The notes below the pieces were generated by a model, which saw nothing but the letters and a program-made list of their open reading frames with translations, was not told the origin of the DNA and searched no databases. This document shows positions 7,653 to 48,251 of a DNA stretch of 50,109 nucleotides, piece by piece. Origin of the DNA: Shigella phage pSf-2. Position 1 is the first letter of the stretch. Every line of letters begins with the position of its first letter. The stretch lies in sequence record KP085586. One strand, given 5' to 3'. The position numbers and the translations under genes are program-made.

Positions 7653-7715
7653 GTCTATTAATCCTTTGAATCGTTGTAACGTTTACGCTATAATACACGG
7701 CATACAGTAAACGTT

Positions 7716-7733
7716 TTTAGCAAAAAGTGCTAT
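7716..7733 (-). promoter_or_regulatory. 18-bp dyad motif copy (tttagcaaaaagtgctat on + strand)
   Basis: Minus strand: 22 nt then tattat upstream of helicase start; abuts SD of + gene 7746. Confidence 0.65.
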
Positions 7734-7745
7734 AGGAGAATCAAG

Positions 7746-8198
7746 ATGAGTATTCAACGTATCGCAGAGTCAACTGGTGAAATCGATAAACGTCACATCA
7801 ATGGTAACAACGGAACACGACGCGGTAAAGACAAAAAGCCACGACAGCGCTGCGGCTTCTATATTCATAAAGAAGAAACACGCGCCGGATTGCGAGCGCG
7901 ACTTGATGCGCTTATCGAATATTATGGTGGCCCTGCGGCCTGCGCAAAAGCTCTAAAGGTTAGCAATCAGACGGTGCAAGGCTGGAAAGAACGCAACATG
8001 ATTTCGTGGCAAGGTGCTGAAGCTGCGCATCGTGCTTACCGACGACAGGGGTGTAAAGGATTTCGTGCCGCATGGTTGCGATTCGACCTGAAGTTTGACG
8101 GTAACGGCAAGTGCCTTGAGAAGCGATGCAAGAACAAGAAATTTATGCGCGTCGTGAAGAAGGAAGATATCGGGACGACCAATAGCATTTTTAGTTAA
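7746..8198 (+). CDS. HTH DNA-binding protein (candidate transcription regulator)
   Basis: aggaga SD; Cro/CI-like HTH segment CAKALKVSNQTVQGW; basic protein. Confidence 0.55.
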   Translation: MSIQRIAESTGEIDKRHINGNNGTRRGKDKKPRQRCGFYIHKEETRAGLRARLDALIEYYGGPAACAKALKVSNQTVQGWKERNMISWQGAEAAHRAYRRQGCKGFRAAWLRFDLKFDGNGKCLEKRCKNKKFMRVVKKEDIGTTNSIFS

Positions 8199-8199
8199 A
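8182..8199 (+). promoter_or_regulatory. degenerate copy of 18-bp dyad motif (atagcatttttagttaaa)
   Basis: Overlaps TAA stop of 7746..8198; no -10 at 22 bp. Confidence 0.3.
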
Positions 8200-8204
8200 A
8201 CAAA

Positions 8205-8247
8205 CGACGCGTAGCGGGTTAACATCCTTCTACGCGTTTTTTATTTT
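8205..8247 (+). terminator. Rho-independent terminator
   Basis: Stem gcgtag/ctacgc with long loop, then ttttttatttt. Confidence 0.5.
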
Positions 8248-8259
8248 GGAGATCTGGAA

Positions 8260-9195
8260 GTGAACGAAGAATTTATGATGTTTCAGAAAGAGGACGTTTT
8301 GCCGTACATGAAGGGGTTATGGCGCGAGGCTTTCCAATCAATCTGCGGATTGCCGAATGATGTTTTTAATAAGAAACACCAACCTTGCCCTAACTGCGGG
8401 GGTAAGGACCGCTTTCGCTGGACTGATAACCTTAACACTCCGGGCGACGGCGGTGCGATCTGCAACTCATGCGGTAACGACTCTGGAGTCGGTTGGTTGA
8501 TGAAATTAACTGGTATGCCGTACAGCGAATGTATAAATATCCTGGGAAGATTTCTCGGCAAGGTTCCGCAGGAATACATTGTCAAGGCCAACAAAAAAGC
8601 GCGAAGAACTCCGGTAGCTGGCGTCAATGTTATGATGGCAGAACACGAGGCAGTGATGAAAGTTATGGAGCGCACAGAGAAGCGCATAAACACACCTCTA
8701 AGCATGTTTGAGTCGCTACCTACTGAATCATTCGACGTTGGCGTAAAACGTCGAGAGGATGGCGGCGAGAGTGTATTTCACGCCATACCATGTCAACTTG
8801 TACACGAGGACGGTCTTGATGAAGAGTTTTGCAATATTTTGATTATTGATGAGGAGGGTAGGGAGTCATTTTATGCAAAGAAATACACAAGTTGCTCGGT
8901 TGCCGTGACTGGTAAAACTGAAAAAGCGATCTACTTATGCCTTAATTGGATTGATGCTCAGCATATTGCATTTCACACAAAGCAAGAGGTATGGGCCTGC
9001 TTCACTCCTGAAAATCTAGAAATGGTTGCGTACAGATACAAGGGAGATCGGGAGGTAAGGGTGGCGTGCGAACCATCTGATAAAGAAACTTTATACATGG
9101 CAGACGACAGACAATTAAAAATAATCATCCCGAATCAGGGAGGATACCGCTCAGGAATGCAAGCTAAGTTATTCTCAGCAAGTGATCTACTATAA
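8260..9195 (+). CDS. primase-type zinc-ribbon protein (putative DNA primase)
   Basis: CPNCGGKDRFRW...CNSCGN Zn ribbon as in P4/T7-type primases; start may be ATG 8275 not GTG 8260. Confidence 0.5.
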   Translation: MNEEFMMFQKEDVLPYMKGLWREAFQSICGLPNDVFNKKHQPCPNCGGKDRFRWTDNLNTPGDGGAICNSCGNDSGVGWLMKLTGMPYSECINILGRFLGKVPQEYIVKANKKARRTPVAGVNVMMAEHEAVMKVMERTEKRINTPLSMFESLPTESFDVGVKRREDGGESVFHAIPCQLVHEDGLDEEFCNILIIDEEGRESFYAKKYTSCSVAVTGKTEKAIYLCLNWIDAQHIAFHTKQEVWACFTPENLEMVAYRYKGDREVRVACEPSDKETLYMADDRQLKIIIPNQGGYRSGMQAKLFSASDLL

Positions 9196-9223: not shown

Positions 9224-9252
9224 TTGCAAGACTCATGGCGCGATGATAAAAT
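9224..9252 (+). promoter_or_regulatory. sigma70-like promoter for tail-fibre gene (TTGCAA-17-TAAAAT)
   Basis: Near-consensus hexamers with 17-bp spacer, 44 nt before ATG 9296. Confidence 0.5.
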
Positions 9253-9257
9253 CTGTG

Positions 9258-9275
9258 TTTAGCAATTCGTGCTAT
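9258..9275 (-). promoter_or_regulatory. 18-bp dyad motif copy (tttagcaattcgtgctat) in operator-like position
   Basis: Lies 6-23 nt downstream of the -10 above and 20 nt before ATG 9296. Confidence 0.65.
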
Positions 9276-9295
9276 TTACTTAAGGAGTTTATATT

Positions 9296-11080
9296 ATGGC
9301 TTTATATCGACGCGGTACTGCATCAATGGATGCAGACGGAACGGTTCGCGGAACCGATACAAAATGGAAGGATCAGCTTGCTCTGATTCGAGTAGGTGCA
9401 ACTATCGTATTCCTGGAACAACCGATAAAGCTGGCTGTAATCAGCGATATCGTGAGCGACACTGAGTTAAAGGCTATCTCTACTGATGGTCAGACTGCCG
9501 CTGACGGTAAGTATGTGATCCTGCTTAACGATTCACTGACTGTTAACGGATTAGCTCAAAACGTTGCTGAGACGCTTCGATACTATCAAAGCAAAGAGAC
9601 TGAGATTGCGGCATCTATAGATCTGATAAATCAGCTTGATATGAATAAACTTGAGCAAATAGTTGCTGATGTGAATCAGGCGAAATCTGATTCTCAAGCT
9701 GCGCAAAATCAGGCTGAATTAGCGCGTGACGCAGCCAACGCTGCACGCGATGAAACTAACTCAATCAAGAATCAGACGCAACAGATTGTTGACGGTGCTG
9801 TCGGTAGCATCAATGCGGCGAAGGATCAGGCTATAACCGATGTGCAGCAAAAAGAAAATTCATCCATCACTCACATTGACTCAGAAGAAGCGGCGGCGAT
9901 TCAGGCAATTAATGACGCAAAAGGCGATCTGTCAGGTTACGTTAATGACGCTCAGACGGCAGCACAAACGGCGACCTCTGCAAAAAACGACGCTCAGGCA
10001 GCGCGTGACGATGCGGTAAGCTCAAAAGATGCGGCTGCGGTAAGTGCTCAAGAAGCAAAAGACGCAGCTAACAGCATCAATGCTGAAAATCTTTTAACTA
10101 AGGATGGCAATCTAGCTGGTCTTGAGGATAAAAAAGAGTCAAGAAAAAATATTGGGTTAGGTGAAAATGATGCTGTTAACTTTCTTACTATTAACACCAC
10201 TGGCGCTATAGGTGCAGGAAGGAATTCATGGGACGGTTCTAGCTGGGGTAGTCAGTCCATATTGTCATCATTGATGATTATGTCACCTGATGGAATATCT
10301 ACGCCAGGTATTTACGTCAGAAAAGAACGTAGCGATAATGGTTATGCTGGGGCTTTATTATTTTATGAGGGGGCAAACTACTTCGAGACTAACAATAGAT
10401 TCAGGGCCAATCAGTTTTTATGCCAGAAAACAGCTATGGGTTATAACCAGATGTGGTCTGCTTCATGCTTCCAGGGTAATGCTTACACCGCTGATAGTGG
10501 TGCTGAAAACTATCAATCACTTATTGCTGGATCGTGTGACACCAGAGGTCAGGGATACGCTGGCGGCGTAGCATTTGGCATGATGACTACGGGTAATCCT
10601 GAATGGCCCAGGGCACAAATATCAGTAGGCGCTCAAGATAGGGATGGAGTAGGCAATATTGGTCTGCAAATGCATTTCAGGTTTATGGCTTCAGGGCAAA
10701 TATCTTACGCTGGACCGCAAGTGGCTGGAAGTTTCCAACAGGTTCCGGCATCTGACAGAAATATAAAGCACAGCATAAAGGATGATGAATCAAGCATTGC
10801 ATACAACAACATAAAATCAATGAGATTTAGGAACTTTATATTTAACGATGATGAGCAAGAAAGGGTAAGGAGAGGTGTTATAGCTCAGGAGATAGAAGAG
10901 ATCGACAATCTATATGTTAAGAGAAGGGTGTATGAGAGCCACGAGCTAAACGGGCCAAAAGTTGAAAGGCTTGAGCTTGATACAACTCCTTTATTGCTTG
11001 ACACTATGAGAGCTTTACAGGATACAATAAAGAAAGTTGAAGAGTTACAAGAAGAGATAAAAATGTTGAAGTCCAAATGA
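9296..11080 (+). CDS. tail fibre protein with C-terminal intramolecular chaperone (peptidase S74-like) domain
   Basis: Ala/Gln-rich coiled N-part; C-terminal SDRNIKHSIK...GVIAQEIEEI autoproteolytic chaperone signature. Confidence 0.8.
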   Translation: MALYRRGTASMDADGTVRGTDTKWKDQLALIRVGATIVFLEQPIKLAVISDIVSDTELKAISTDGQTAADGKYVILLNDSLTVNGLAQNVAETLRYYQSKETEIAASIDLINQLDMNKLEQIVADVNQAKSDSQAAQNQAELARDAANAARDETNSIKNQTQQIVDGAVGSINAAKDQAITDVQQKENSSITHIDSEEAAAIQAINDAKGDLSGYVNDAQTAAQTATSAKNDAQAARDDAVSSKDAAAVSAQEAKDAANSINAENLLTKDGNLAGLEDKKESRKNIGLGENDAVNFLTINTTGAIGAGRNSWDGSSWGSQSILSSLMIMSPDGISTPGIYVRKERSDNGYAGALLFYEGANYFETNNRFRANQFLCQKTAMGYNQMWSASCFQGNAYTADSGAENYQSLIAGSCDTRGQGYAGGVAFGMMTTGNPEWPRAQISVGAQDRDGVGNIGLQMHFRFMASGQISYAGPQVAGSFQQVPASDRNIKHSIKDDESSIAYNNIKSMRFRNFIFNDDEQERVRRGVIAQEIEEIDNLYVKRRVYESHELNGPKVERLELDTTPLLLDTMRALQDTIKKVEELQEEIKMLKSK

Positions 11081-12221: not shown

Positions 12222-12277
12222 CTTAACTTCTCCTGATTGGTGTATGAGGTGCATTATAACACCTCATTAATTATTTG

Positions 12278-13639: not shown

Positions 13640-13810
13640 GTTACACGATAGACAACTGTTACACAACAATAATTATATATATAAAGCTAAAATTAAATAT
13701 TATCTATCTATATATATTATATATAGTTTTTATCATATCCCTCTGCGGTCGGGTAGGGTGGATTTTGTAACACCCGTTCCGGTTACAAAAATAGACACCT
13801 GTTACACGAA
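13640..13810. repeat. AT-rich divergent control region with direct repeats TAGACAnCTGTTACAC (x2) and inverted repeat TTTTGTAAC-N10-GTTACAAAA
   Basis: Repeats at about 13644-13660 and 13790-13806; palindrome at about 13765-13792; (TA)n tract 13700-13725. Confidence 0.45.
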
Positions 13811-18552: not shown

Positions 18553-18598
18553 GATGTTTACCTTTTTGTGCTATTTATCTGTGGACTCATTATACAGG

Positions 18599-18626
18599 CG
18601 AAAAAAAACCCGCGCAAGGCGGGTTA
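18599..18626 (-). terminator. intra-operon terminator/attenuator between I-like and J-like genes
   Basis: acccgc-gcaag-gcgggt hairpin followed on minus strand by T8; same stem-loop as at 20788. Confidence 0.5.
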
Positions 18627-20739: not shown

Positions 20740-20779
20740 TTATTTTTCCTCTTGTTTACCTGCAACCATTCTACAGCTA

Positions 20780-20810
20780 CAAAAAAACCCGCGCAAGGCG
20801 GGCTTTTGTT
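20780..20810. terminator. terminator-like hairpin between M-like and L-like genes
   Basis: cccgc-gcaag-gcggg stem-loop flanked by A7 and T-run; near-identical to hairpin at 18608. Confidence 0.5.
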
Positions 20811-24086: not shown

Positions 24087-24413
24087 TTAGTTATTCTGCT
24101 TAGCAATCATTTCGAGCGCTTTCGCTTCCATGATCCTAACGTCCTGCAATGCCAGTTCTTCATCCTCTATTTTATAGATTTTAAACAACATAGGCAAAAC
24201 ATTATAATCAAGACCGTAAGCGCCAGCGCCTGAACTTCTCCACTGAGTGAGCATTGATGTAAAAACATTCCAAGCCTTCAACATTTCAGCGTCGCCAATT
24301 ATCGTTTCCGGTTCCTCGTCTTCATAGTCAGAAAGACTTAAACCAACCGATCGCAATTGTTCCTCTGTTGGCGGCTTCTGATATAACAGATAGACCGCCT
24401 TTTTTAGTTTTTT
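24087..24413 (-). CDS. T-like extension of tail assembly chaperone, expressed by -1 frameshift from 24404..24721
   Basis: -1 frame is open from the slippery heptamer to stop at 24087; no ATG (track start is TTG); position before tape measure. Confidence 0.6.
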   Translation of the reverse strand, partial: KKLKKAVYLLYQKPPTEEQLRSVGLSLSDYEDEEPETIIGDAEMLKAWNVFTSMLTQWRSSGAGAYGLDYNVLPMLFKIYKIEDEELALQDVRIMEAKALEMIAKQNN

Positions 24414-24721
24414 GCGCGGTGTCCGGCAAGCGCCTTGATGTAAGTCGCTGTCAGGTTGTACGCTGCGGAAGGATAATACTGAACCAGTTTTCGTGAATTT
24501 TCTTCGTTAAATTCTTCTTCAAGGTTCCATCCTGACGCGATCTTGGTAATGAACTCGCTGTCGTTCATTTCTCCCTGGTTAGCATACATGTCCTGAACTT
24601 CTTTACTGGAAAGGTGTCGCACAGTGAAAATGATCGTTGCATCTTCACCGTTAGGCATGGTGAAGGTAACTGGAAGTTTGAAGTCTGGAAGTTGACCAAG
24701 AACGAAATTAAATTTAGCCAT
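24404..24721 (-). CDS. tail assembly chaperone (lambda G-like)
   Basis: 105 aa, acidic; ends GCA AAA AAC TAA so a slippery heptamer precedes the stop. Confidence 0.65.
   Translation of the reverse strand: MAKFNFVLGQLPDFKLPVTFTMPNGEDATIIFTVRHLSSKEVQDMYANQGEMNDSEFITKIASGWNLEEEFNEENSRKLVQYYPSAAYNLTATYIKALAGHRAKN
24407..24413 (-). other. -1 programmed frameshift slippery heptamer A AAA AAC
   Basis: X XXY YYZ heptamer in zero frame of G-like ORF immediately before its stop. Confidence 0.6.
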
Positions 24722-24742
24722 GATATTTCTCCTGATTGGTTA

Positions 24743-24760
24743 ATAGCACTTTTTGTTAAA
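24743..24760 (+). promoter_or_regulatory. 18-bp dyad motif copy (atagcactttttgttaaa), opposite orientation to flanking late genes
   Basis: 21 nt upstream of G-like start 24721 on other strand; followed by accaatcaggag leader. Confidence 0.55.
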
Positions 24761-24792
24761 AGCAAAGAGTGCAAAGTTGATACGATGATTTT

Positions 24793-24823
24793 ACAGAAAT
24801 GAAGAAGGGGGCGCAAGCCCCCT
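24793..24823 (-). terminator. terminator-like hairpin after major tail gene
   Basis: aggggg-cgcaag-ccccct hairpin, modest T-rich tract. Confidence 0.35.
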
Positions 24824-24834
24824 GTGGATATGAT

Positions 24835-25503
24835 TTAGGCACCAGGTGATGCCAGAGCGGATGAAACGAAAGTGAAATCACCCTTCAGGGATACGGCGAG
24901 TTGTACCGTTTCCATTTCGTTTACTTGCGTAGATGGAATGTCGTTAAAAGACAAGATACCAGCCCACATGCGCATCTCGTTCGCTTTTGGAACATACATC
25001 CGAACCGCAGTTACCTGACCAGAAGAATCCAGCTTACGCAGAATAGGATAGATAGGGTTATCAAATTCGTGCGCGAAGGTGTACGTTAGCGAGATTGCAG
25101 ACTTAAACGTCGGGATCTGCTGCTCTTTATCGTCAGACAAACACTGATAAGTGTAATACTGCTGCTCGCCGCCGTCCTGACCAATCTCCTGTACGCAAGG
25201 GATCTCAGTCCAGCCAGTAATTTTTGCAAAGCTCATTGTACCGCCAGCCGGGAAAACAAGAGCATCAGTAGTGTCAATCCCAGCAAGAGTAATGCTTGTT
25301 TCTTGGGCGTCAGTAACAATTAGTACTCGACTAACCATCTTAGCCCAAGTTGACTGAGTTACAATAACGTAATCACCTTTCGCCAAGTCGCCCTTAGATG
25401 CAACTGTAGCAACAGGATTTTTTGCGTTAGTGACAGCGGTCGCCTCGATCTCTTCTCCGCGAGAGGTTTCCACGAAAATTTGCGCGCCATTTGGTAAGTG
25501 CAT
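24835..25503 (-). CDS. major tail protein
   Basis: 222 aa, beta-rich, directly upstream of chaperone pair. Confidence 0.55.
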   Translation of the reverse strand: MHLPNGAQIFVETSRGEEIEATAVTNAKNPVATVASKGDLAKGDYVIVTQSTWAKMVSRVLIVTDAQETSITLAGIDTTDALVFPAGGTMSFAKITGWTEIPCVQEIGQDGGEQQYYTYQCLSDDKEQQIPTFKSAISLTYTFAHEFDNPIYPILRKLDSSGQVTAVRMYVPKANEMRMWAGILSFNDIPSTQVNEMETVQLAVSLKGDFTFVSSALASPGA

Positions 25504-25504
25504 A

Positions 25505-25903
25505 TTAAGTCTCCTTTGTGTCTACTCGTACTGTAAAGCGAACCGGAATCATCCACCCGCTTTCGTGTTTAACAATTTGATGCACGATTGCACCCTCGAA
25601 AATATAACCAACGTTAAGCATTTTACCATCTTTGAAAAAATCAGCAATCTCTTTTGCTTTCAATCTTGCCTCGTCAACCCCTGATCCTGGAGGGAAAACC
25701 ACTCCAATTTGCACGATAGCAATGTAAGACTTGCATTTTCTGTCAATGGATAGATAACGTGTATCGCCTTCTATGTAATTAAATCTAAGCCACATACCGC
25801 CATCCTTCGGTGGTGTGAAGTTGCGGTTTTCCATGTAGTGAGGAAAATCTCTGTACTTTGACAGAAATGCGGCTCTAGCCGCCGCTGATAACTCATAGTG
25901 CAT
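25505..25903 (-). CDS. tail terminator / tail completion protein candidate
   Basis: 132 aa, position between head-tail joining genes and major tail. Confidence 0.4.
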   Translation of the reverse strand: MHYELSAAARAAFLSKYRDFPHYMENRNFTPPKDGGMWLRFNYIEGDTRYLSIDRKCKSYIAIVQIGVVFPPGSGVDEARLKAKEIADFFKDGKMLNVGYIFEGAIVHQIVKHESGWMIPVRFTVRVDTKET

Positions 25904-26336
25904 TTTGTTGTCTCCTTGCTTGCTTTATTGCACCAGACATATACGATCGCAGCCTCAACGCCACCAATCCTACTACGCCGCTTGGCGCTTGCTGTGAGTG
26001 ACCGTATTCAAGGGCGTTTGCATAAATTAACATATTTGAAAAGTGAACTGAGGTTATCGCGCCTCCACGGCTGAACATGCCATAAGTTTTGGCCTGTTCC
26101 TCACCTCTGACGACACCGCCAGTTTTATCGTATCGGTTTAATGCGTGGTTAGGGATTTCGTTAAAAGTTATCTGCCAGTTACCTTTAAATCTCCCTGTGT
26201 CGACAGGAGAACGGCTAACGAGCGCATCATGAACATCCCTCACGAATATCTCAATGGCATGTTCTAACGTGCTTTCAGCGGCCTTAATCCACGCATCAAT
26301 ATCGCCTTGAAATCTACGAATCTGATAATTAGCCAC
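25893..26336 (-). CDS. head-tail joining protein candidate
   Basis: 147 aa, synteny only. Confidence 0.4.
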   Translation of the reverse strand: MANYQIRRFQGDIDAWIKAAESTLEHAIEIFVRDVHDALVSRSPVDTGRFKGNWQITFNEIPNHALNRYDKTGGVVRGEEQAKTYGMFSRGGAITSVHFSNMLIYANALEYGHSQQAPSGVVGLVALRLRSYMSGAIKQARRQQNAL

Positions 26337-26709
26337 CGACTGATACCCTCCGCAATACTGGACGATAGGCGACAGGTTCTAATGACGCCTGAACCGGGCG
26401 AGCGTCAACTACAACATGACGAACACCGTCAATCTCTATATAGTCGCCTTCGTTTATTTCATGATCATTATTGAAGATCCCCAAAAGGTCGGAGGCGCGT
26501 ATTGTTTCTCCGTCAACCTCCCGAGAATTTGGTCTGCGAGTGGCTCCAGATATTGGAATAACCTGTTCCATCGGTGGAATCTCGAATCCGTTTTCATCAT
26601 ATCCGTATTCACCTTGCTTTATCAGGTTCATAGGTCTTGACGGATCGGTGAAGAAAGCCACACCTTTGCGAGCCATCCTTTCAATCTGTGAGTAGTTCAT
26701 TAGTGGCAT
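26329..26709 (-). CDS. head-tail adaptor / head closure protein candidate
   Basis: 126 aa, synteny only. Confidence 0.4.
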   Translation of the reverse strand: MPLMNYSQIERMARKGVAFFTDPSRPMNLIKQGEYGYDENGFEIPPMEQVIPISGATRRPNSREVDGETIRASDLLGIFNNDHEINEGDYIEIDGVRHVVVDARPVQASLEPVAYRPVLRRVSVGG

Positions 26710-27110
26710 CCTCCACGGAGTCCTGTCATTAATGCGAATCGACCACGGCGTCGCGCTTTAAGCTGTTCGAACATCTTACCCCACGGCGTCGAAAGCATCA
26801 TGTTCCCTGACTGGTTCTTTGTAACCTCTCCGAAAGTCTGGCTAAATTCACCGCTCAGGGAGAATGACGTAACTCGTCGTGAGTACGATTCCAGATCCTC
26901 ATCTTCACCTTTTAGCGCCCCGTCAAGGAAAGCAAGGTGCAATGCATAAAGAGCGAGCGCTTTTACGTATGCGTCTTTAAAGGTCTTCTGGCATACAAAA
27001 AGCTCAGCCATTTCTACCCACGCATAAAGCGTTTCGTCTGGAACCTTACGAAGTGCCGGAACCAGCTTTCGCATTTGCTCAACAACTGCAATTAAAGTTT
27101 CTTGATTCAT
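26700..27110 (-). CDS. head-tail connector protein candidate
   Basis: 136 aa, helical, synteny only. Confidence 0.4.
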   Translation of the reverse strand: MNQETLIAVVEQMRKLVPALRKVPDETLYAWVEMAELFVCQKTFKDAYVKALALYALHLAFLDGALKGEDEDLESYSRRVTSFSLSGEFSQTFGEVTKNQSGNMMLSTPWGKMFEQLKARRRGRFALMTGLRGGCH

Positions 27111-27121
27111 AATTTACCACC

Positions 27122-27148
27122 ATAAAAAAAAGGCGCTACATGAGCGCC
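27122..27148 (-). terminator. terminator-like hairpin
   Basis: aggcgct-acatg-agcgcct followed by T8 on minus strand. Confidence 0.45.
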
Positions 27149-27155
27149 TTGATGA

Positions 27156-27443
27156 TTAATATTCGCCGCCGTCCTCAAGCTCTTTAACGCTTTTGCTATC
27201 CCACGGATCTGGCTTAGTGATCTTTGCCATTTCAGCGCGGATTTTGCGGTTGGTTGCACTGTCGTCTTTAACTTCGATTTCTTCGCGAGCAATTAAGCAA
27301 CGCAGGCCAGGCAAATCAAGAACGGACGCCGGAAGCGTGACCTCTTTATCTGGAAGAACTTTAGCAAAGGAACCATCTTCAAGACGGAACATCTGAAGAG
27401 CTACACCAACGTTTACGATAACAACAGTTTTTTCTTTAGCCAT
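27156..27443 (-). CDS. hypothetical structural-module protein
   Basis: 95 aa, ggaga SD. Confidence 0.4.
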   Translation of the reverse strand: MAKEKTVVIVNVGVALQMFRLEDGSFAKVLPDKEVTLPASVLDLPGLRCLIAREEIEVKDDSATNRKIRAEMAKITKPDPWDSKSVKELEDGGEY

Positions 27444-27458
27444 TTTGATTTCTCCAAT

Positions 27459-27488
27459 AAAAAAAGGGACTAACTAAGTTAGCCCCTA
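27459..27488 (-). terminator. Rho-independent terminator after major capsid gene
   Basis: About 9-bp stem gggactaac/gttagcccc, T7 on minus strand. Confidence 0.55.
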
Positions 27489-27493
27489 TAATA

Positions 27494-28453
27494 TTACACG
27501 CCAGTGATTAAGACAATAGTCATCGGGCGATAAATTGTAAGACCAGTACACTTAGAGGTGCAAGGCACTTTAAAGTGCAAGTCTTTCGGTTGTGCTGGCA
27601 GCATGTTAAATGCTTCCGGGATCTCGATGGACATGTTCATCGGATTCTTTTCGTACACCAGTACGCCTTTGGTGCCTGCGCCGTCAATATCCTCAAGCTC
27701 TGCGATAGAGTCGATTTCGATACCTGAGTTCTGAGACTTGAAATAGTCCAGATAAGACATGGTAGTCTCAGGCATACGAATCGCCAGCACCTTACGCATG
27801 GACGGCGGGATCAGAATGTTGGTAGCTCGGTGCTGGCCTCGAGTAATCGTCTCGATGGTTTCGATCGCCTGAGTCAATTCCGCTTCAGCCGTTTCCGGTT
27901 TCTGAGTTGCGCCATCCATCCACTTACCGGAGGTAATTTTGGTGATGTTCGGATGATTGAACACGGACACAATCTTGTGCGGCGCGGAACCTTTGAACAC
28001 CAGGCGGTTAACAAGCTGATCATGAGCCAACTGGCACGCACTTGCCTTACGGGTTGACAGTGGACGACCAGTTGCCTGACCTGCTTTGATTTCGTCGATT
28101 GAGATCAGATACGCGTTACCAAGACGGAACACCTTGCCAAACTCAGAAGTACCCAGGGCGTCAACCAGCGGAAGATCGTCGGTGTAGTCTGCGATAATCT
28201 GAGCCGTACCAACCTTGTCAAAGGTCATGTATTCAAACGTCTTATCAGTCGGAGAAAGATCGGTTGTAACCGGGAATACGCGTAGAGCGGAGCCGACCGG
28301 GTAGTCTTCTTCATAGGACTGGCTTTTAATGCGGTGTAGTTCCTGAGCGGTCCAGATACCCATTGTTGCGGCTGCATCCTGTTTTACGCCAGCCTGGATC
28401 AGATACATTTCAACATTGCTTTTATCTGCTTCATCAAATTTTTTAGTAGTCAT
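27494..28453 (-). CDS. major capsid protein
   Basis: 319 aa, in capsid position downstream of scaffold and decoration-like genes, followed by strong terminator. Confidence 0.75.
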   Translation of the reverse strand: MTTKKFDEADKSNVEMYLIQAGVKQDAAATMGIWTAQELHRIKSQSYEEDYPVGSALRVFPVTTDLSPTDKTFEYMTFDKVGTAQIIADYTDDLPLVDALGTSEFGKVFRLGNAYLISIDEIKAGQATGRPLSTRKASACQLAHDQLVNRLVFKGSAPHKIVSVFNHPNITKITSGKWMDGATQKPETAEAELTQAIETIETITRGQHRATNILIPPSMRKVLAIRMPETTMSYLDYFKSQNSGIEIDSIAELEDIDGAGTKGVLVYEKNPMNMSIEIPEAFNMLPAQPKDLHFKVPCTSKCTGLTIYRPMTIVLITGV

Positions 28454-28472
28454 GATTACTTCTCCGTAGTTA

Positions 28473-28499
28473 ATAAAAAAGCCGTGATTATGTTCACGA
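28473..28499 (-). terminator. short hairpin plus T-run between promoter-like element and capsid gene
   Basis: cgtga-ttatgt-tcacg then T6 on minus strand. Confidence 0.35.
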
Positions 28500-28507
28500 C
28501 TTCAATA

Positions 28508-28525
28508 ATAGCACTTTTTGTTAAA
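28508..28525 (+). promoter_or_regulatory. 18-bp dyad motif copy (atagcactttttgttaaa) inside a minus-strand TTGACG-16-TATTAT element
   Basis: Motif occupies spacer of sigma70-like hexamers 28527-28532 and 28505-28510. Confidence 0.5.
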
Positions 28526-28544
28526 GCGTCAAAGTGTTTTTATG

Positions 28545-29312
28545 TTATGCATCAACCTCTGGCTCTGGCACTGCTTCTACGCGATAAGCAATGGTTGCCG
28601 TCGTCTTGCTGGCATCGTTAGCCGTCCATGTGATATTGAAATCACCGACAGATTCTCCACCAGCAGGAGTTACAAGACCTGAGTCAGGATCGATAGTAGC
28701 GATATTGGTAGCGTCTATTGACCACTTGCCAGTCTTATCAGTTGCATTAGCTGGAATAACATTAGCTACACACTGGATCGTAACGTTGTTTGGCTGAGGG
28801 CTTTCCTTGTCAGTGGTGATTGTAGCGGACTCAACAAGAACGACAGGGGGCGGCGGCGGTGGAACGATGAAAGCATTTTGTTTCACCTGAACCTCAATAA
28901 TGTAGCCATCTTCATGCTTAACAAAGCCGCCAGCAAAGGTCCATCCTGCGGAACCAGACCAACCAGTAACAACTCCACCAGATCCAAACTGCAACTTTGA
29001 GAACAAGCCGGGAGCCTCATCAAGAGAAGTAAGCGCCCACATGCGACCGTGAGAAACGACGTTGCAAACTTCGCCGTCGAGAATTTTACCGCTCAGGTGT
29101 TCATATTGAGAACGGAAAGCGATACCGTAAGGAGTCCCGCCATCAGAAAGTACTTTGACGACTTTTACACCATCAACGATGCCGACAACCTGAACCGCCG
29201 CGCCGAACTCAATGTCACCTTGAGCCACACAAGCGCCATCAATATTGTAGGTTGAAGTATCAGAAAGATTTCCCGGACACGCCGGGCGCAACATTAAATT
29301 TTCGTAAGCCAT
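28545..29312 (-). CDS. capsid-associated protein, paralog of 29374..29850 with poly-Pro linker and Ig-like C-terminal domain
   Basis: Shared N-terminal YNIDGACV...GAAVQVV...TPYG block; PPPPPPP linker. Confidence 0.5.
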   Translation of the reverse strand: MAYENLMLRPACPGNLSDTSTYNIDGACVAQGDIEFGAAVQVVGIVDGVKVVKVLSDGGTPYGIAFRSQYEHLSGKILDGEVCNVVSHGRMWALTSLDEAPGLFSKLQFGSGGVVTGWSGSAGWTFAGGFVKHEDGYIIEVQVKQNAFIVPPPPPPVVLVESATITTDKESPQPNNVTIQCVANVIPANATDKTGKWSIDATNIATIDPDSGLVTPAGGESVGDFNITWTANDASKTTATIAYRVEAVPEPEVDA

Positions 29313-29373: not shown

Positions 29374-29850
29374 TTACAGTTGATGCAACTGAACCTCAAC
29401 AAGCTGAATATCTTTGTATTTAGTCCAACCGCCAGCGTAGGTCCAGGTTGTTTCGATCGTGCCATCAGATTTTTCCTGACCATCAACATCAAGTTTAACG
29501 GCAGAGCCGAAAGTTGGTGCTTCGGTGGATTTGGAAAGCATCCATACTCGGCCTGAAGTCATCACGTTGATAGCGCCGCCATCTTCGTAAATCATCTGAT
29601 TTTGAGCGTTAACAGTCTGCCAGTGAGATCGGATTGCCACGCCGTAAGGAGTGGTTCCGGTAGTAAGAGCCTTAACCAACTTATGACCATCAACCGCCTG
29701 AGATTGAACAACTTGTACGGCAGCGCCAACAAGAACATCACCTTCATTAACGACACAAGCGCCGTCAATATTGTACTTTGAAGTGTCCGCAACCATACCC
29801 GGAAGCGCAATCGCCATATCTCGCTGATAAGATGCATTAATTTGTGCCAT
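29374..29850 (-). CDS. capsid-associated protein (decoration-like candidate)
   Basis: 158 aa, paralogous to N-terminal domain of 28545..29312. Confidence 0.5.
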   Translation of the reverse strand: MAQINASYQRDMAIALPGMVADTSKYNIDGACVVNEGDVLVGAAVQVVQSQAVDGHKLVKALTTGTTPYGVAIRSHWQTVNAQNQMIYEDGGAINVMTSGRVWMLSKSTEAPTFGSAVKLDVDGQEKSDGTIETTWTYAGGWTKYKDIQLVEVQLHQL

Positions 29851-34672: not shown

Positions 34673-35197
34673 TTAAAGCATGTCAAGAATACTGTTTACA
34701 GCCTCTTTCATTGCGTCCTCAGTGGTGGCGACTACTGTCGATGCGGAAGCTGCCGAGTTTTCGATATTGATTGAGGCTGGCTTATCGATTCCGAGATCCT
34801 TACCGATAAAGGAGGCGTTAATAACACCGTTGGCGGCAAGCTGGAATTTTTGCTCATTTATTACCGACTCAACAAACTCCATAACCTCACTGTATTCTTC
34901 CTCTCGCTTCCACTTAATGATTGCGGCCTCGCTTGCACCGATAAATAGTCGGTATCCGGTCCAGGTGAAGACGCGCGGCTTATGAACTAGCGATTCATAA
35001 ACGCCACCCTGAAAGCTGGCTGATTCTGACGCCTTGATTGCGTTGTCCTCGGCCCATTCGAAATACTTCACTGAAAGATCGAATAGTTGCTCTGGCGTCA
35101 TCGCTCTGTTTTTCGCGAGTACAGTGCCGAATTTTTTCTTGTATAGCTCTTTGAAATTACCTCCCTGGACTACGGGAGCGTTCTTAGGTTCACTCAT
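34673..35197 (-). CDS. terminase small subunit candidate (start moved to internal ATG)
   Basis: Upstream of TerL; aaagagga SD before ATG 35197. Confidence 0.5.
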   Translation of the reverse strand: MSEPKNAPVVQGGNFKELYKKKFGTVLAKNRAMTPEQLFDLSVKYFEWAEDNAIKASESASFQGGVYESLVHKPRVFTWTGYRLFIGASEAAIIKWKREEEYSEVMEFVESVINEQKFQLAANGVINASFIGKDLGIDKPASINIENSAASASTVVATTEDAMKEAVNSILDML

Positions 35198-35249
35198 AAA
35201 TAAATCCTCTTTGTTTAACATTTAGTGTTATTTTACCATATTGCAGGCA

Positions 35250-35273
35250 TAAAAAAACCCGCCGAAGCGGGTT
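35250..35273 (-). terminator. Rho-independent terminator upstream of terminase genes
   Basis: acccgc-cgaa-gcgggt hairpin, T7 on minus strand; extended -10 tggtaaaat follows. Confidence 0.5.
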
Positions 35274-35281
35274 AGTATTTA

Positions 35282-36986: not shown

Positions 36987-37044
36987 TTCGATTTTCTCTC
37001 TTCGTTGTCGATGAGGTAACTATATCAAATCACCCCACCGACGT

Positions 37045-37062
37045 TTTAGCAATTCGTGCTAT
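37045..37062 (-). promoter_or_regulatory. 18-bp dyad motif copy (tttagcaattcgtgctat)
   Basis: Overlaps TAG stop of kinase gene; minus strand: 22 nt then tatagt (37019-37024). Confidence 0.7.
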
Positions 37063-40013: not shown

Positions 40014-40079
40014 AGCTGATTTCTCTGATTGGTTGCCGTGCTTCAATAAGGCCACTATATCAAATGGCCTTGCGGAAGG

Positions 40080-40097
40080 TTTAGCAATTCGTGCTAT
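40080..40097 (-). promoter_or_regulatory. 18-bp dyad motif copy (tttagcaattcgtgctat)
   Basis: Minus strand: 22 nt then tatagt inside inverted repeat aaggcca/tggcctt. Confidence 0.7.
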
Positions 40098-41309: not shown

Positions 41310-41366
41310 GTTTGTATCCTCGTTCGTTGTCGATGGGGTTACTATATCGCAACCCCGATATTGTGT

Positions 41367-41384
41367 TTTAACAAAAAGTGCTAT
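41367..41384 (-). promoter_or_regulatory. 18-bp dyad motif copy (tttaacaaaaagtgctat)
   Basis: Overlaps TAG stop of 41381..41572; minus strand: 22 nt then tatagt. Confidence 0.7.
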
Positions 41385-42091: not shown

Positions 42092-42322
42092 TTACTCCTC
42101 AATTAAAGTGCTGATATCGTCAAAGCCCTGGAGGTCTGCGTTCCAGACTAGGAAGTTTGCAAGGTTTTCGCACCACACCCATTTCCCGTTATCCTCCATG
42201 TATGTTTTGTGCCCACCCGGTACGGCACTGACAGCAAATCGCTTGTTGTCGCGAGTGATGAAAATAGCAAAGCGGTTGTGGCTGGTTGAGTCGATGGCTT
42301 GCTGGTTCTTGACGATTGACAT
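42092..42322 (-). CDS. hypothetical protein
   Basis: 76-codon ORF; accaatcagagg leader before ATG 42322. Confidence 0.5.
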   Translation of the reverse strand: MSIVKNQQAIDSTSHNRFAIFITRDNKRFAVSAVPGGHKTYMEDNGKWVWCENLANFLVWNADLQGFDDISTLIEE

Positions 42323-42386
42323 GGTGATTCCTCTGATTGGTATCTCGTTTCGATGGGGTAACTATATCAAGATACCCCGATTCGTT

Positions 42387-42404
42387 TTTAACAATTCGTG
42401 CTAT
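42387..42404 (-). promoter_or_regulatory. 18-bp dyad motif copy (tttaacaattcgtgctat)
   Basis: Overlaps TAG stop of 42401..42871; minus strand: 22 nt then tatagt flanked by ggggta/tacccc. Confidence 0.7.
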
Positions 42405-43989: not shown

Positions 43990-44047
43990 AATATATCCTC
44001 TTTGTCTATTCGCGTGTAAATGGTGTCATAATGTGTCAACAATTGCC

Positions 44048-44076
44048 ATTGTGACATCTCGATGTAGAGCTGTCAA
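44048..44076 (-). promoter_or_regulatory. sigma70-like promoter candidate (TTGACA-17-CACAAT) for leftward early operon
   Basis: Consensus -35 with 17-bp spacer, 58 nt upstream of ATG 43989; TGTCA/TGACA inverted repeats nearby. Confidence 0.4.
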
Positions 44077-44129
44077 TGCCTGCGAGCCAATTTTAAGCCG
44101 TGTAACATTTGTCTAGCTGTCTATAGCCA

Positions 44130-44390
44130 CTATAGAAATATATGGCTCTCAAAAAAAGTACTGTATATATAAACACTCAGATAGAAATATGCCAACAGTA
44201 CGCTAGACAATGTAAGACAGCTATACACAACTATTACAATATAATTATCTATATATATAAATAAAAAAAACACTATATATATTATATATATACATATATC
44301 TATATGTATATTGTGAGGCGTCACAGTGTGTATTTTTGTCACAAGTGCGATTCTAGACAAATATTACAGTCGTGACAAGTTAAAGTGTAA
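44130..44390. repeat. AT-rich tract with (TA)n/ATATA runs and TAGACA / GTCACAAG repeats; candidate origin or early control region
   Basis: Long ATATATA-type tracts at 44160-44320; repeated ctagacaa, gtcacaag/gtgacaag words. Confidence 0.45.
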
Positions 44391-44393
44391 TCG

Positions 44394-44411
44394 ATAGCAC
44401 TTTTTGCTAAA
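44394..44411 (+). promoter_or_regulatory. 18-bp dyad motif copy (atagcactttttgctaaa)
   Basis: First rightward copy; no clear -10 at 22 bp. Confidence 0.5.
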
Positions 44412-44598
44412 AATGGAGATGAATGCCAGGCGAACCGGGTAACACCAATTCCTCCCTCTCACAATCATTGCATTCTCAGCAACAAATCAACCAACTGTTG
44501 CACACCATGCAATAATCACGTTTCATCATTCGTAATCAATAACAATCAAGATTATTCCACCTATTCCAGTATTGATTGAATAATGAGCAATTATTGGA

Positions 44599-44616
44599 AT
44601 AGCATTTTTTGCTAAC
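44599..44616 (+). promoter_or_regulatory. 18-bp dyad motif copy, variant (atagcattttttgctaac)
   Basis: tatgat about 23 nt downstream, then caaccaatcaggag leader to ATG 44675. Confidence 0.6.
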
Positions 44617-44674
44617 GACTTAGCAAGGCCGATTGGGTATGATTCATCACATCAACCAATCAGGAGCAATCGAC

Positions 44675-44818
44675 ATGACAACTGCAAACATCAACGCAAC
44701 AATTAATCGTTACGAACACATCTATCGCGTAGCGCTGTTCTCTGACATGGCGTTAGCTAACAAGGCGAAGTTAATAATCGACAAACTGAATCACTACAAA
44801 AAGGAGATCGAAAAATGA
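44675..44818 (+). CDS. hypothetical small protein (start moved to internal ATG)
   Basis: aggag SD 8 nt before ATG 44675; track start 44633. Confidence 0.4.
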   Translation: MTTANINATINRYEHIYRVALFSDMALANKAKLIIDKLNHYKKEIEK

Positions 44819-46300: not shown

Positions 46301-46318
46301 ATAGCACGAATTGCTAAA
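46301..46318 (+). promoter_or_regulatory. 18-bp dyad motif copy (atagcacgaattgctaaa)
   Basis: 22 nt (with hairpin ccccga/tcgggg) then tatagt; caaccaatcaggag leader to ATG 46377. Confidence 0.7.
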
Positions 46319-46376
46319 CGCCCCGAAGGGAATCGGGGTATAGTAAACAACATCAACCAATCAGGAGAATCGCCAG

Positions 46377-48189: not shown

Positions 48190-48251
48190 ATTGCCGTAAG
48201 GTCATTTGATAAAGTGGCCTTATTCAAGATAACCAATCAGGAGTGAACGCA

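Follow-up and report, generated by a model that had tools for sequence, protein, structure and literature searches.

Genes and features at the two sites

The window, i.e. the whole 50,109-nucleotide stretch of Shigella phage pSf-2 (KP085586) that was analysed, represents a T1-like coliphage of the genus Tunavirus with about 95% identity to ADB-2. Two identical 18-mers (ATAGCACTTTTTGTTAAA, 18/18 exact) lie at 24743-24760, before a tail assembly chaperone gene, and at 28508-28525, before the major capsid protein gene. As the original prediction had stated, both read forward on the plus strand among minus-strand late genes. The identity between the two copies reaches 20 nt (TAATAGCACTTTTTGTTAAA).

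Both 18-mers are copies of a 21-nt repeat of the Drexlerviridae (aaATAGCACnnnTTGnTAAAA), which was described in 2024 as intergenic direct repeats of phage TLS, with its function left open, and was said to occur also in T1, Rtp and Rogue1 (PMC11447400). In TLS the repeats are oriented along transcription, about 76 nt 5' of start codons, and Table S1 of that study lists DR7 as 'neg' strand, 5' of the plus-strand major head gene (PMC11447400); DR7 is the homologue of the 28508 copy. The window pair belongs to the same sequence family as the TLS repeats (PMC11447400) but differs in being inverted and in lying 21 nt (24743 copy) and 54 nt (28508 copy) from the ATG, with one copy built into a core promoter and its partner facing antisense.

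Distribution and position of the repeat

The motif is highly non-random in the window: 14 matches with up to three mismatches were found against 0.03 expected from 100 shuffles, and a weight-matrix scan returned 22 sites at 20 bits or more. The repeat is AT-rich, with a T run and an A run, and its core is a quasi-palindrome, TAGCA-N5-TG(C/T)TA; subtypes T, G and A of the 21-nt repeat are present in the window too.

At canonical copies a -10 hexamer lies at offset 21 (56 of the 72 canonical sites), which puts the site centre near -42, and the element TTGCTA is 22 bp from the -10, beyond the range of a -35. Around late promoters the repeat takes either orientation: at terS, capsid, G, J and stf it is found between about -30 and +40, overlapping or following the core promoter, whereas canonical copies are upstream of their -10. 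The inverted copies hold the same position in T1 and SRT8. Neither the fixed 21-nt distance nor this contrast between late and early positions is described in PMC11447400. The original prediction had called the context of both copies non-canonical, which holds for their orientation; on the plus strand the 24743 copy retains the canonical order of motif, 21 nt and -10, so that only the 28508 copy is truly non-canonical.

A third inverted copy, additional to the two of the original prediction, was observed elsewhere in the window.

9254..9278, minus strand: copy inverted relative to the flanking genes, at about +1 of the TTGCAA-17-TGaTAAAAT promoter that serves the tail-fibre gene; conserved in T1 and SRT8
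9296-11080, plus strand: tail-fibre gene downstream of this copy

The capsid-gene module

The following features were identified around the 28508 copy.

27494-28453, minus strand: major capsid protein gene (PF09950, E 4.8e-63)
28451..28465, minus strand: ribosome-binding site (RBS) GGAG (28465-28462) and start codon (28453-28451) of the major capsid gene
28478..28503, minus strand: hairpin of 10 pairs, beginning 1-2 nt past the -10 and followed by a T run at 28480-28475 (scan and covariation)
28505..28529, plus strand: inverted repeat copy with the 18-mer 28508-28525 (25.2 bits; on the gene strand CTTTAACAAAAAGTGCTAT)
28505..28532, minus strand: predicted sigma-70-type promoter of the major capsid gene (scan, 10/12 matches plus TG), consisting of -35 TTGACG (28532-28527), 16-bp spacer (28526-28511), TG (28513-28512) and -10 TATTAT (28510-28505)
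28533..28544, minus strand: A-tract CATAAAAACACT, adjoining the -35 on its upstream side; 'AACAYAAAAAC' is kept across genera

The minus-strand TTGACG-16-TATTAT element and the hairpin with T run claimed to precede the capsid RBS were all recovered by the scan. The 28508 copy had been placed within the 16-bp spacer; it does supply 15 of the 16 spacer bases, among them the TGn, and it runs on into the -10 hexamer for three bases. The A-tract directly follows the decoration-protein stop codon (28545-28547) and resembles a proximal UP-element subsite, as which it may serve.

Of 54 distinct relatives, 52 retain the composite TTGNNN-16/17-TATNNT before the capsid gene, down to a capsid identity of 57%, and 51 of the 54 have an equivalent repeat copy at 21 bits or more. 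These loci span Tunavirus, Sertoctavirus, Warwickvirus, Tlsvirus, Nouzillyvirus, Hafnia and Klebsiella phages and Webervirus, and the layout of A-tract, TTGNNN, 16-bp reversed repeat and TGc-TATNNT is conserved at 52 of the 54. All 16 spacer positions are conserved across genera, with changes only between two canonical subtypes; in Webervirus (the 57% case) the repeat switches to the other one (GAATT). Such full conservation of the spacer exceeds the requirement of sigma-70 itself.

The hairpin is likewise maintained, with 90.5% of cells paired and compensatory changes in 7 of the 10 pairs; none of 500 shuffles matched the observed score, and the controls were far lower. Termination cannot be its sole role, because the L068 lineage keeps it without the U run. 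An invariant G-T (28497-28496) lies inside its 5' arm, and spacing rules predict a transcription start at this G, 7-8 nt past the -10. A recognisable -35 is seen at only about six intergenic promoters of the window, this one included, and the GenBank records of T1 and SA32RD already carry the capsid promoter as computational annotation. The proposal of internal late promoters is thus strongly supported by sequence and deep conservation for the putative capsid promoter, though not for the chaperone gene as far as the motif is concerned, since there it does not form the sense promoter.

The tail-chaperone module

The region of the 24743 copy contains the following features.

24404-24721, minus strand: tail assembly chaperone gene (Pfam Phage_TAC_4, E 1.5e-36)
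24719..24732, minus strand: RBS GGAG (24732-24729) and ATG (24721-24719) of this gene
24740..24764, plus strand: inverted repeat copy with the 18-mer 24743-24760 (27.4 bits)
24778..24786, plus strand: extended -10-like TGaTACGAT, exactly 21 nt downstream of the repeat; predicted antisense start at about 24793
24788..24816, minus strand: candidate sense promoter within a terminator, made up of a -35-like TTGCGC that falls in the hairpin loop (24816-24811), 17 bp and TAAAAT (24793-24788), preceded by TG; predicted start at about 24781
24806..24823, minus strand: intrinsic-terminator-like hairpin past the major tail protein gene (stop 24835-24837); annotated as a terminator in SA32RD

The 24743 copy and TGaTACGAT make up a complete canonical module (repeat, 21 nt, -10) aimed antisense. 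Five genera retain this copy (Tunavirus, Sertoctavirus, Badaguanvirus, Warwickvirus and Hanrivervirus), which is absent at the equivalent locus in TLS and Webervirus. The antisense hexamer is kept as TAnnnT in seven of seven relatives, with positions 3-5 and the 17-nt spacer varying; this is not independent evidence, because the hexamer shares bases with the stretch that the sense promoter would transcribe first. Sense TGTAnAAT is conserved in all relatives, even in TLS, which is without the repeat, and seven phages of the five genera (the window, T1, SRT8, IME347, Poky, pSf-1 and grams) share a spacing of exactly 26 nt between the sense -10 and the repeat. The antisense module is back-to-back with the sense promoter, the two -10 elements being 2 bp apart on opposite strands, and this layout recurs at the helicase/regulator pair. 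The copy itself would occupy about +19 to +38 of the predicted sense 5' UTR, adjoining the chaperone RBS.

Candidate sense promoters embedded in terminators also occur upstream of the J-like, K-like and terS genes, and at G, J, K and terS the -35 falls within the loop of the terminator hairpin. A sense promoter before the chaperone gene appears to exist as a sequence element: the internal promoter proposed there has a candidate in TTGCGC-17-TAAAAT, 26 nt upstream of the motif, whose own module points the opposite way.

A candidate binder of the repeat

The window encodes a candidate for the protein that would bind the repeat.

7746..8198, plus strand: gene of a 150-aa Cro-like HTH protein (phrog_2856, E 1e-76; weak P22_Cro/YdaS HTH match)

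It has its own consensus promoter, TTGAAT-17-TATAAT (7666-7694), and a repeat copy at 7717-7733 in its 5' UTR. The AF2 model (pLDDT 81.7) has a core resembling the Xfaso1 and N15 Cro proteins, with extra N- and C-terminal regions that are highly conserved. The recognition helix is not strongly conserved, although the repeat is, and T1 encodes at least two further HTH proteins. We infer that the quasi-palindrome is bound by a dimeric phage protein, for which this Cro-like product is the best candidate.

Proposed mechanism and alternatives

Sequence, rigid spacing and conservation are plain in both modules. Under a model with one Cro-like regulator, both copies would be functional parts of two conserved late-region control modules and not stray repeats, a reading to which we assign a probability of about 0.5. 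The sigma-70 promoter would restart transcription directly 5' of the major capsid gene, and the hairpin with its U run would stop or cap transcripts arriving from upstream; RNAs born at the promoter would start inside the 5' arm and therefore carry an incomplete stem. The repeat spans about -29 to -10, so that a binder there would occlude the core promoter, and the occupied repeat would act as a repression point. Before the chaperone gene, the bound factor and RNA polymerase recruited to the antisense -10 would compete with the sense promoter and block read-through from the major tail gene, so that less chaperone and tape-measure product would be made. A single Cro-like protein could activate about 20 promoters without a -35, where the site is centred near -42, and repress where the site overlaps or follows the core promoter. 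Judged by geometry, the copies may reasonably be read as repression points, as originally suggested, given their position in the core promoter or in the 5' UTR beside the RBS. No release mechanism, which would be needed if one factor repressed all late promoters, was found, nor did the literature search find a T1 transcriptome. On the whole, the original interpretation is partly supported.

It is possible, but rather unlikely, that both copies are antisense promoters whose plus-strand RNAs act against the major tail and decoration-protein genes through antisense RNA or transcriptional collision. The 24743 module, conserved in seven relatives, has the full plus-strand arrangement that this requires, but it is without the GC hairpin and the CATCGAAACGA leader typical of canonical modules; the plus-strand hexamer at offset 21 from the 28508 copy is TATGCA, which scores -0.4 bits and is not conserved (TATACA in T1, TAGCAC in TLS), and no plus-strand ORF, Rfam family or good plus-strand terminator was found after either site.

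More doubtful is a repeat read by RNA polymerase itself, as a UP-like or AT-rich spacer element, so that the 28508 copy would merely provide a good spacer and extended -10 and the capsid promoter would be constitutive. The reversed ATAGCAC half does yield TGc-TAT, the beginning of an extended -10, the AT-rich runs would suit such an element, and a UP-element role was raised by the TLS authors (PMC11447400). In canonical modules, however, the T and A runs lie about one helical turn downstream of the UP subsite position and TTGCTA is too distant for a -35; polymerase contact would leave the 16/16 spacer conservation and the switching between two subtypes unexplained, and the repeat also occurs downstream of start sites and in both orientations.

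There is little likelihood that the copies act in RNA, as 5' UTR sites for a translational repressor or RNase or as a small stem-loop UAGCA-N5-UG(C/U)UA near the RBS. At G, J, stf and the regulator gene, predicted 5' UTRs do contain a copy at 0-21 nt from the RBS or ATG, and in sense orientation the common C/T variation of the right half keeps G-C or G-U pairing; against this, both orientations adjoin an RBS, which would give RNAs of two different sequences, the reverse one with an A-C mismatch, the predicted start lies downstream of the 28508 copy, canonical copies are upstream of their -10, and the local RNA stem around 24743 in the window is not conserved in T1. Least probable is Q-like antitermination, in which the repeat in the capsid spacer would be a QBE-like loading site for a factor that lets polymerase pass the adjoining and other late terminators: a terminator does follow the promoter immediately, at least eight terminator-like hairpins separate the late genes, several with no subsequent promoter, and the initially transcribed hairpin loop contains a -10-like CATAAT, but the T1 annotation has no Q-like protein, the sole candidate tested has a Cro-like fold, the Webervirus terminator is upstream and not downstream of the promoter, and about 20 other copies lie outside promoter spacers.

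Comparison with known systems

The proposed control by a single Cro-like regulator has a parallel in cI, which acts at OR2 for PRM: a site near -42 gives class II activation and sites over the -35 or -10 give repression. The repeat fits the same logic of OR and PRM-PR, activation when centred near -42 and repression when overlapping the -35 or -10. Like lambdoid cI/C2 and Cro operators, it is a quasi-palindrome with half-sites one helical turn apart, and as with lambdoid Cro the regulator gene has a site in its own control region and the candidate binder a Cro-like fold. Unlike lambdoid operators, the sites are dispersed (about 25) and not clustered in a tripartite array, the phage is virulent, and the binder is a candidate from sequence and modelling; this candidate also differs from lambdoid Cro in its added conserved terminal regions.

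An analogy to the stoperators of mycobacteriophage L5 was proposed by the TLS authors (PMC11447400). Many dispersed copies, a short asymmetric site and an orientation bias relative to transcription are common to both; L5 stoperators lie within transcribed regions as polar blocks, whereas most copies of the repeat precede a -10 by a fixed distance, and those at late promoters take both orientations. The capsid module recalls lambda PR'-QBE-tR', in which a strong late promoter likewise has a DNA element between its -35 and -10 and is followed by a terminator, but here the terminator already begins at the start site, the analysis found no Q homologue, and, unlike QBE, the repeat is used at about 20 further places outside promoter spacers. 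As summarised in PMC11447400, T1 late 'transcriptons' (Roberts et al. 2004) are genes flanked by rho-independent terminators with RpoD-type promoters between; the late genes of the window have the same organization, except that promoter and terminator physically overlap.

The presence of inverted copies in conserved late control modules bears on the function of the repeat: they are probably docking sites through which a phage regulator may throttle late promoters.

Sequence, copy number and geometry of the repeat

The 5.4 kb around the two copies shared 95.5% identity with Escherichia phage ADB-2 and 93.4% with T1, so that the window amounts to an essentially whole genome of a Tunavirus (Drexlerviridae). 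Both copies are flanked by minus-strand genes, as follows:

24404-24721, minus strand, tail assembly chaperone gene G (Phage_TAC_4, E 1.5e-36)
24835-25503, minus strand, major tail protein gene
27494-28453, minus strand, major capsid protein gene (PF09950, E 4.8e-63)
28545-29312, minus strand, Ig-domain cement/decoration protein gene

A 56-nt direct repeat (29227-29282 and 29753-29808, 79% identical) lies inside two neighbouring decoration/cement protein genes (28545-29312 and 29374-29850) and suggests a duplicated domain common to both.

The original prediction placed forward-reading motif copies at 24743-24760 and 28508-28525, and both 18-mers proved to be exact (18/18) occurrences of ATAGCACTTTTTGTTAAA on the plus strand, with 20 nt identical. 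This 18-mer is the commonest variant of the Drexlerviridae 21-nt repeat aaATAGCACnnnTTGnTAAAA. With a weight matrix derived from 20 sense copies, the 24743 copy scored 27.4 bits and the 28508 copy 25.2 bits, canonical copies scoring 21-35 bits; the window contained 22 sites of at least 20 bits, and 14 matches at no more than three mismatches against 0.03 expected. Both copies are intergenic, between annotated genes, and inverted with respect to the flanking genes, 21 nt (24743) and 54 nt (28508) from the downstream ATG. The sequence aaATAGCACnnnTTGnTAAAA was reported in 2024 for phage TLS as a "21 nt direct repeat" with 18 intergenic copies, the repeat was noted also in T1, Rtp and Rogue1, and the function was left as an open question, with stoperators, enhancer sites and UP elements named as possibilities (PMC11447400). 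The TLS repeats run along transcription about 76 nt before the start codon, a pattern that the 24743 and 28508 copies do not fit. Literature searches on the motif string and on transcript maps of T1 or the Drexlerviridae returned nothing beyond the TLS paper (PMC11447400).

At its core the repeat has the quasi-palindrome TAGCA-N5-TG(C/T)TA, whose half-sites are spaced by one helical turn. Spacing was surveyed in all strong copies of the window and of phages T1, SRT8 and TLS, and the best -10-like hexamer was found exactly 21 nt past the 17-mer in 56 of the 72 gene-oriented copies; a further 6 had it at 22 nt. Roughly half of these canonical sites carry a TGn extension, and their -35 position reads AAAACN. 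Because the -10 offset is 21 nt, the palindrome centre falls at about -42 relative to the inferred start. Spacing this rigid speaks more for a stereospecific contact with RNA polymerase than for a simple block. The canonical modules and the plus-strand module at 24743 have in common a site near -41.5, no usable -35 and a good or extended -10; as read from the DNA, such an arrangement corresponds to class II activation, for which a candidate activator is proposed.

GC-rich hairpins occur between the repeat and the -10, or around the -10, and their sequences differ between copies while pairing is kept (for example at 37008-37062, 40043-40097, 41330-41384, 42350-42404 and 46301-46345, with arms such as GGGGTA/TACCCC, GGGGTT/AACCCC and GGCCA/TGGCC). 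These hairpins lie upstream of the inferred starts and would therefore be present only in read-through RNA or in DNA. Many canonical -10 elements are followed by a conserved leader, CATCGAAACGA or CATCAACC, and a recurrent ribosome-binding context, ACCAATCAG(G)AG, is common to at least seven unrelated genes (for example at 24729-24740, 12228-12240, 40020-40035, 42320-42335, 44655-44666, 46356-46367 and 48225-48240). AT-rich (TATATA)n-like blocks at 44230-44300 and 13690-13740 form an inverted pair (I11/D12) 30 kb apart; one of them lies within the gene-free divergent early control region 43990-44815, which also has a repeat copy (44391-44415) without a -10 at the canonical offset.

The predicted capsid promoter and its hairpin

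The predicted minus-strand TTGACG-16-TATTAT element upstream of the capsid gene was found, with a TG at -15/-14, as were the hairpin and T run after it. The copy had been placed in the 16-bp spacer; it does cover 15 of the 16 spacer bases, but it also takes in the first three bases of the -10. The features of this region are as follows:

28532-28505, minus strand, predicted sigma-70 promoter, TTGACG-16-TGcTATTAT (10/12 matches)
28503-28478, minus strand, hairpin and T run
28503-28472, minus strand, intrinsic terminator by its GC-rich stem-loop, covariation and U run

On the gene strand the order is TAA-CATAAAAACAC-TTTGACG-CTTTAACAAAAAGTGC-TATTAT-TGAA, then the stem-loop GTCGTGA ACATAA TCACGGC, TTTTTT, GGAG and the ATG. 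For comparison, 61 capsid-upstream regions were collected from IMG/VR (54 distinct), together with annotated phages of other genera. In 52 of the 54 distinct relatives the promoter takes the form TTGNNN (as TTGCAC, TTGACG, TTGAAC or TTGACC), 16 bp (17 bp in three), TATNNT, and in 51 of the 54 the spacer is a reversed repeat of at least 21 bits. This layout is kept as far as Klebsiella Webervirus (57% capsid identity), where the repeat has switched subtype, to the other canonical one (TTAGCAATTCGTGCTAT). Sigma-70 imposes no such constraint on the bases of a spacer. That the spacer is conserved, and switches between the allowed subtypes alone, suggests that something else reads this DNA as well. 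The plus-strand hexamer at the canonical offset from the 28508 copy varies (TATGCA in the window, TATACA, TAGCAC), and a canonical antisense promoter at this copy was therefore rejected.

The GenBank records of T1 and SA32RD already carry a predicted promoter and terminator at the capsid site. In the TLS paper the homologous repeat appears as DR7 "neg", uncommented and with no promoter given there (PMC11447400). The capsid promoter is among only about six intergenic promoters of the window with a recognisable -35, the others serving early genes and the regulator gene.

A 10-bp stem starting 0-3 nt past the -10 was recovered by RNAalifold from 22 diverse sequences, with 90.5% of cells paired and compensatory changes in 7 of 10 pairs; its covariation score was reached by none of 500 shuffles, and slid controls gave at most 62% pairing. 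Within the stem only a G-T, the 7th-8th nt after the -10, is invariant. Sigma-70 transcription normally starts at this position. By these spacing rules the capsid-promoter RNAs would start within the 5' arm and so could not form the terminator, which transcripts from the decoration-protein gene could form. The U run is 6 nt in the window and ranges from 7 to 0 among lineages, and the hairpin must therefore do something else as well, for instance protect the 3' end of the upstream mRNA. In the Webervirus loci (L073-L082) the reversed repeat is kept about 80-130 nt before the capsid start, in the GAATT subtype, with a strong terminator hairpin upstream of the capsid promoter and none after the -10.

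The chaperone site

On the gene strand 5' of the chaperone gene there is a stop codon, a hairpin (AGGGGGC-TTGC-GCCCCCT), a T-rich tail and TG-TAAAAT, followed by 26 nt, CTTTTAACAAAAAGTGCTAT, TAACCAATCAGGAG and the ATG. Two overlapping readings, both conserved, are found here. On the sense strand, TTGCGC in the hairpin loop lies 17 bp from TAAAAT, and the repeat falls at about +19 to +38 of the predicted 5' UTR. On the plus strand, TGaTACGAT lies exactly 21 nt past the repeat. The hexamer at this offset is TAAGAT in T1, TACGAT in SRT8, TACAGT in IME347, TAGATT in Poky, TAGCTT in pSf-1 and TAGCAT in grams, so that the T, the A and the final T are fixed and the middle positions vary; the 17-nt spacer of the module is unrelated between genera, and the SRT8 copy is of the GAATT subtype. 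By its sequence, the 24743 copy is a complete canonical core module in the antisense direction, whose putative -10 is separated by 2 bp from the sense -10 of the opposite strand, and the two polymerase binding sites would therefore be mutually exclusive.

The chaperone copy is missing from TLS and from Webervirus, where the two genes abut; in TLS the arrangement of terminator, about 5 nt and TG-TAnAAT is present at this site even though the repeat is missing. Behind 24743 on the plus strand there was no ORF with a plausible start and no convincing terminator, and a small ORF behind the antisense module was rejected on the former ground. Pairing of the 24743 copy with bases upstream (GCACTCTTTG/CAAAAAGTGC) would form an RNA stem specific to this lineage; T1 lacks it, and it is therefore not a conserved feature. 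Rfam gave no family at 24743 or 28508, only sub-threshold SraG/asX2 matches on terminators elsewhere.

Position of the repeat at predicted late promoters

Copies inverted with respect to both neighbours occur at the capsid, chaperone and tail-fibre genes in the window, T1 and SRT8, and in TLS upstream of the capsid gene only. The other late features are as follows:

9226-9254, plus strand, tail-fibre gene promoter, TTGCAA-17-TGaTAAAAT, for gene 9296-11080
9254-9278, minus strand, third inverted repeat copy, both flanking genes on the plus strand
18553-18577, minus strand, sense repeat copy abutting the J-like tail gene start codon
35210-35234, minus strand, sense repeat copy abutting the terS ribosome-binding site
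18590-18625, 20770-20805, 24788-24823 and 35240-35275, minus strand, candidate terminator-embedded late promoters

The third inverted copy lies at about +1 of the predicted tail-fibre promoter and is conserved in T1 and SRT8, and TLS has the promoter without the repeat. The J-like copy (conserved in TLS as DR8) and the terS copy lie directly downstream of TG-TATAAT / TG-CAATAT elements that come after terminators. The arrangement of terminator, about 5 nt and TG-TAnAAT recurs before the J-like, K-like and terS genes. This terminator-embedded class has TTGCGC in the loop of the hairpin (at terS, TTCGGC) and, exactly 17 bp further on, a TG-preceded TAnAAT; terminator and promoter therefore lie on the same DNA. 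In the primase module a hairpin encloses the -10 and a T run follows (8179-8260, plus strand; 35178-35243 of the TLS locus L009; 358-436 of the SRT8 locus L086), which places the promoter inside a terminator loop as another promoter/terminator overlap. The site is thus rigidly at -42 in early and middle genes, whereas at five late promoters and the regulator's own it lies at about -30 to +40 in either orientation.

A candidate binding protein

The candidate binder and its control region are as follows:

7746-8198, plus strand, candidate regulator gene (150 aa; phrog_2856, "transcriptional regulator", E 1e-76)
7653-7745, divergent helicase/regulator control region

Residues 55-83 of the protein gave a weak P22_Cro/YdaS HTH match. 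A sequence search against PDB yielded just a marginal P22 Cro match, and a fold search was needed for the Cro-like placement: the helical core of the AlphaFold model (pLDDT 81.7) superposes in Foldseek on two all-alpha Cro proteins, those of Xfaso1 and N15, with a target-normalised TM of about 0.72 and probability 1.0 but an E value of only 0.016. HHpred similarity to P22 C2 is mentioned in the T1 record, and T1 has two HTH proteins besides this one, CPTT1_070 and CPTT1_073. Residues 5-33 (RIAxSTGEIDKRxxNGNNGTRRGKDKKPR) are modelled as disordered yet are the most conserved part of the family, above the HTH, with G11, D14, R16, N19-G23, R26, G27, D29 and R33 invariant.

TLS and SRT8 keep the gene beside those for the primase and the helicase, and its promoter is among only three sigma-70 promoters accepted by the TLS authors (PMC11447400). 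Within 7653-7745 the helicase module (repeat, 21 nt, TATTAT) overlaps the regulator promoter (TTGAAT-17-TATAAT), -10 on -10, which by sequence is the same back-to-back design as the putative pair at 24743. The regulator's 5' UTR and ribosome-binding site pass through a repeat copy, which suggests autoregulation.

Proposed mechanism and alternatives

For both modules the sequence anatomy, rigid spacings and conservation have been demonstrated, and we propose that a dimeric phage HTH protein binds the repeat and, once bound, activates the -35-less promoters from -42. At the capsid promoter, probably otherwise constitutive and very strong, it would occlude the spacer and the -10. At the chaperone gene it would sit in the 5' UTR adjoining the ribosome-binding site and support a competing antisense promoter, and this competition may keep chaperone and tape-measure output low downstream of the abundant major tail protein. 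Extended to the genome, a single Cro-like protein would time the whole T1-type programme via a dispersed quasi-palindrome with an interleaved promoter-terminator layout, a reading to which we give roughly one chance in four. About 20 early and middle -35-less promoters would be activated from the rigid -42, and the protein's own gene and five late promoters (terS, capsid, G, J, stf) would be repressed where the site overlaps or comes after the core promoter. With the -35 in a hairpin loop, the -10 in a loop or the start site within the 5' arm, upstream transcripts would be stopped and locally started ones would escape the terminator. One weak point is that a mechanism for releasing the late promoters is missing; another is that at 24743 the two strands constrain each other.

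Among the alternatives, a stoperator system of the L5 gp71 type would place the sites within transcription units, along transcription, as polar blocks for a repressor; here most copies stand at a fixed distance before a -10 and late copies occur in both orientations, which does not fit that pattern. As to antitermination of the lambda Q type, the T1 annotation has no Q-family protein, and the candidate regulator, in a scan that covered part of the ORFs, is Cro-like. The T run and A run of the repeat are displaced by about 10 bp from the subsites of a UP element. Its TTGCTA/TTGTTA was rejected as a -35, because the distance to the conserved -10 is 22 bp and the hexamers at 16-18 bp lack conservation. 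By our own inspection the consensus positions of host IHF or Fis sites do not fit, and a sigma-54 promoter (TGGCAC-N5-TTGC, GG and GC 12 bp apart) was rejected, as the motif has AG for the invariant GG and its GC at 10 bp.

Novelty and implications

The repeat family and a predicted capsid promoter are already on record. To this the analysis adds that the predicted capsid promoter has its spacer and -10 made up by an inverted repeat copy with family-wide conservation, that the chaperone copy is a putative antisense canonical module back-to-back with a terminator-embedded promoter, and that canonical copies follow a rigid -42 rule, early and late positions being in contrast. The kinds of element involved are known ones: an operator inside a promoter, divergent promoters that overlap, and a promoter overlapping a terminator.

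T1 belongs to the classic set of seven T phages. Members of the Drexlerviridae are often met in collections for phage therapy and as contaminants in the laboratory. A stated open question on T1-like phages now becomes directly testable through the geometry (centre at -42, 21 nt to the -10), the early/late position contrast and a named candidate binder with its own consensus promoter, and the three positionally conserved inverted copies are natural targets for mutagenesis. Together with the site inside it and the hairpin that overlaps it, the capsid promoter would form a compact, strong and possibly switchable promoter-insulator unit, which could have practical use.
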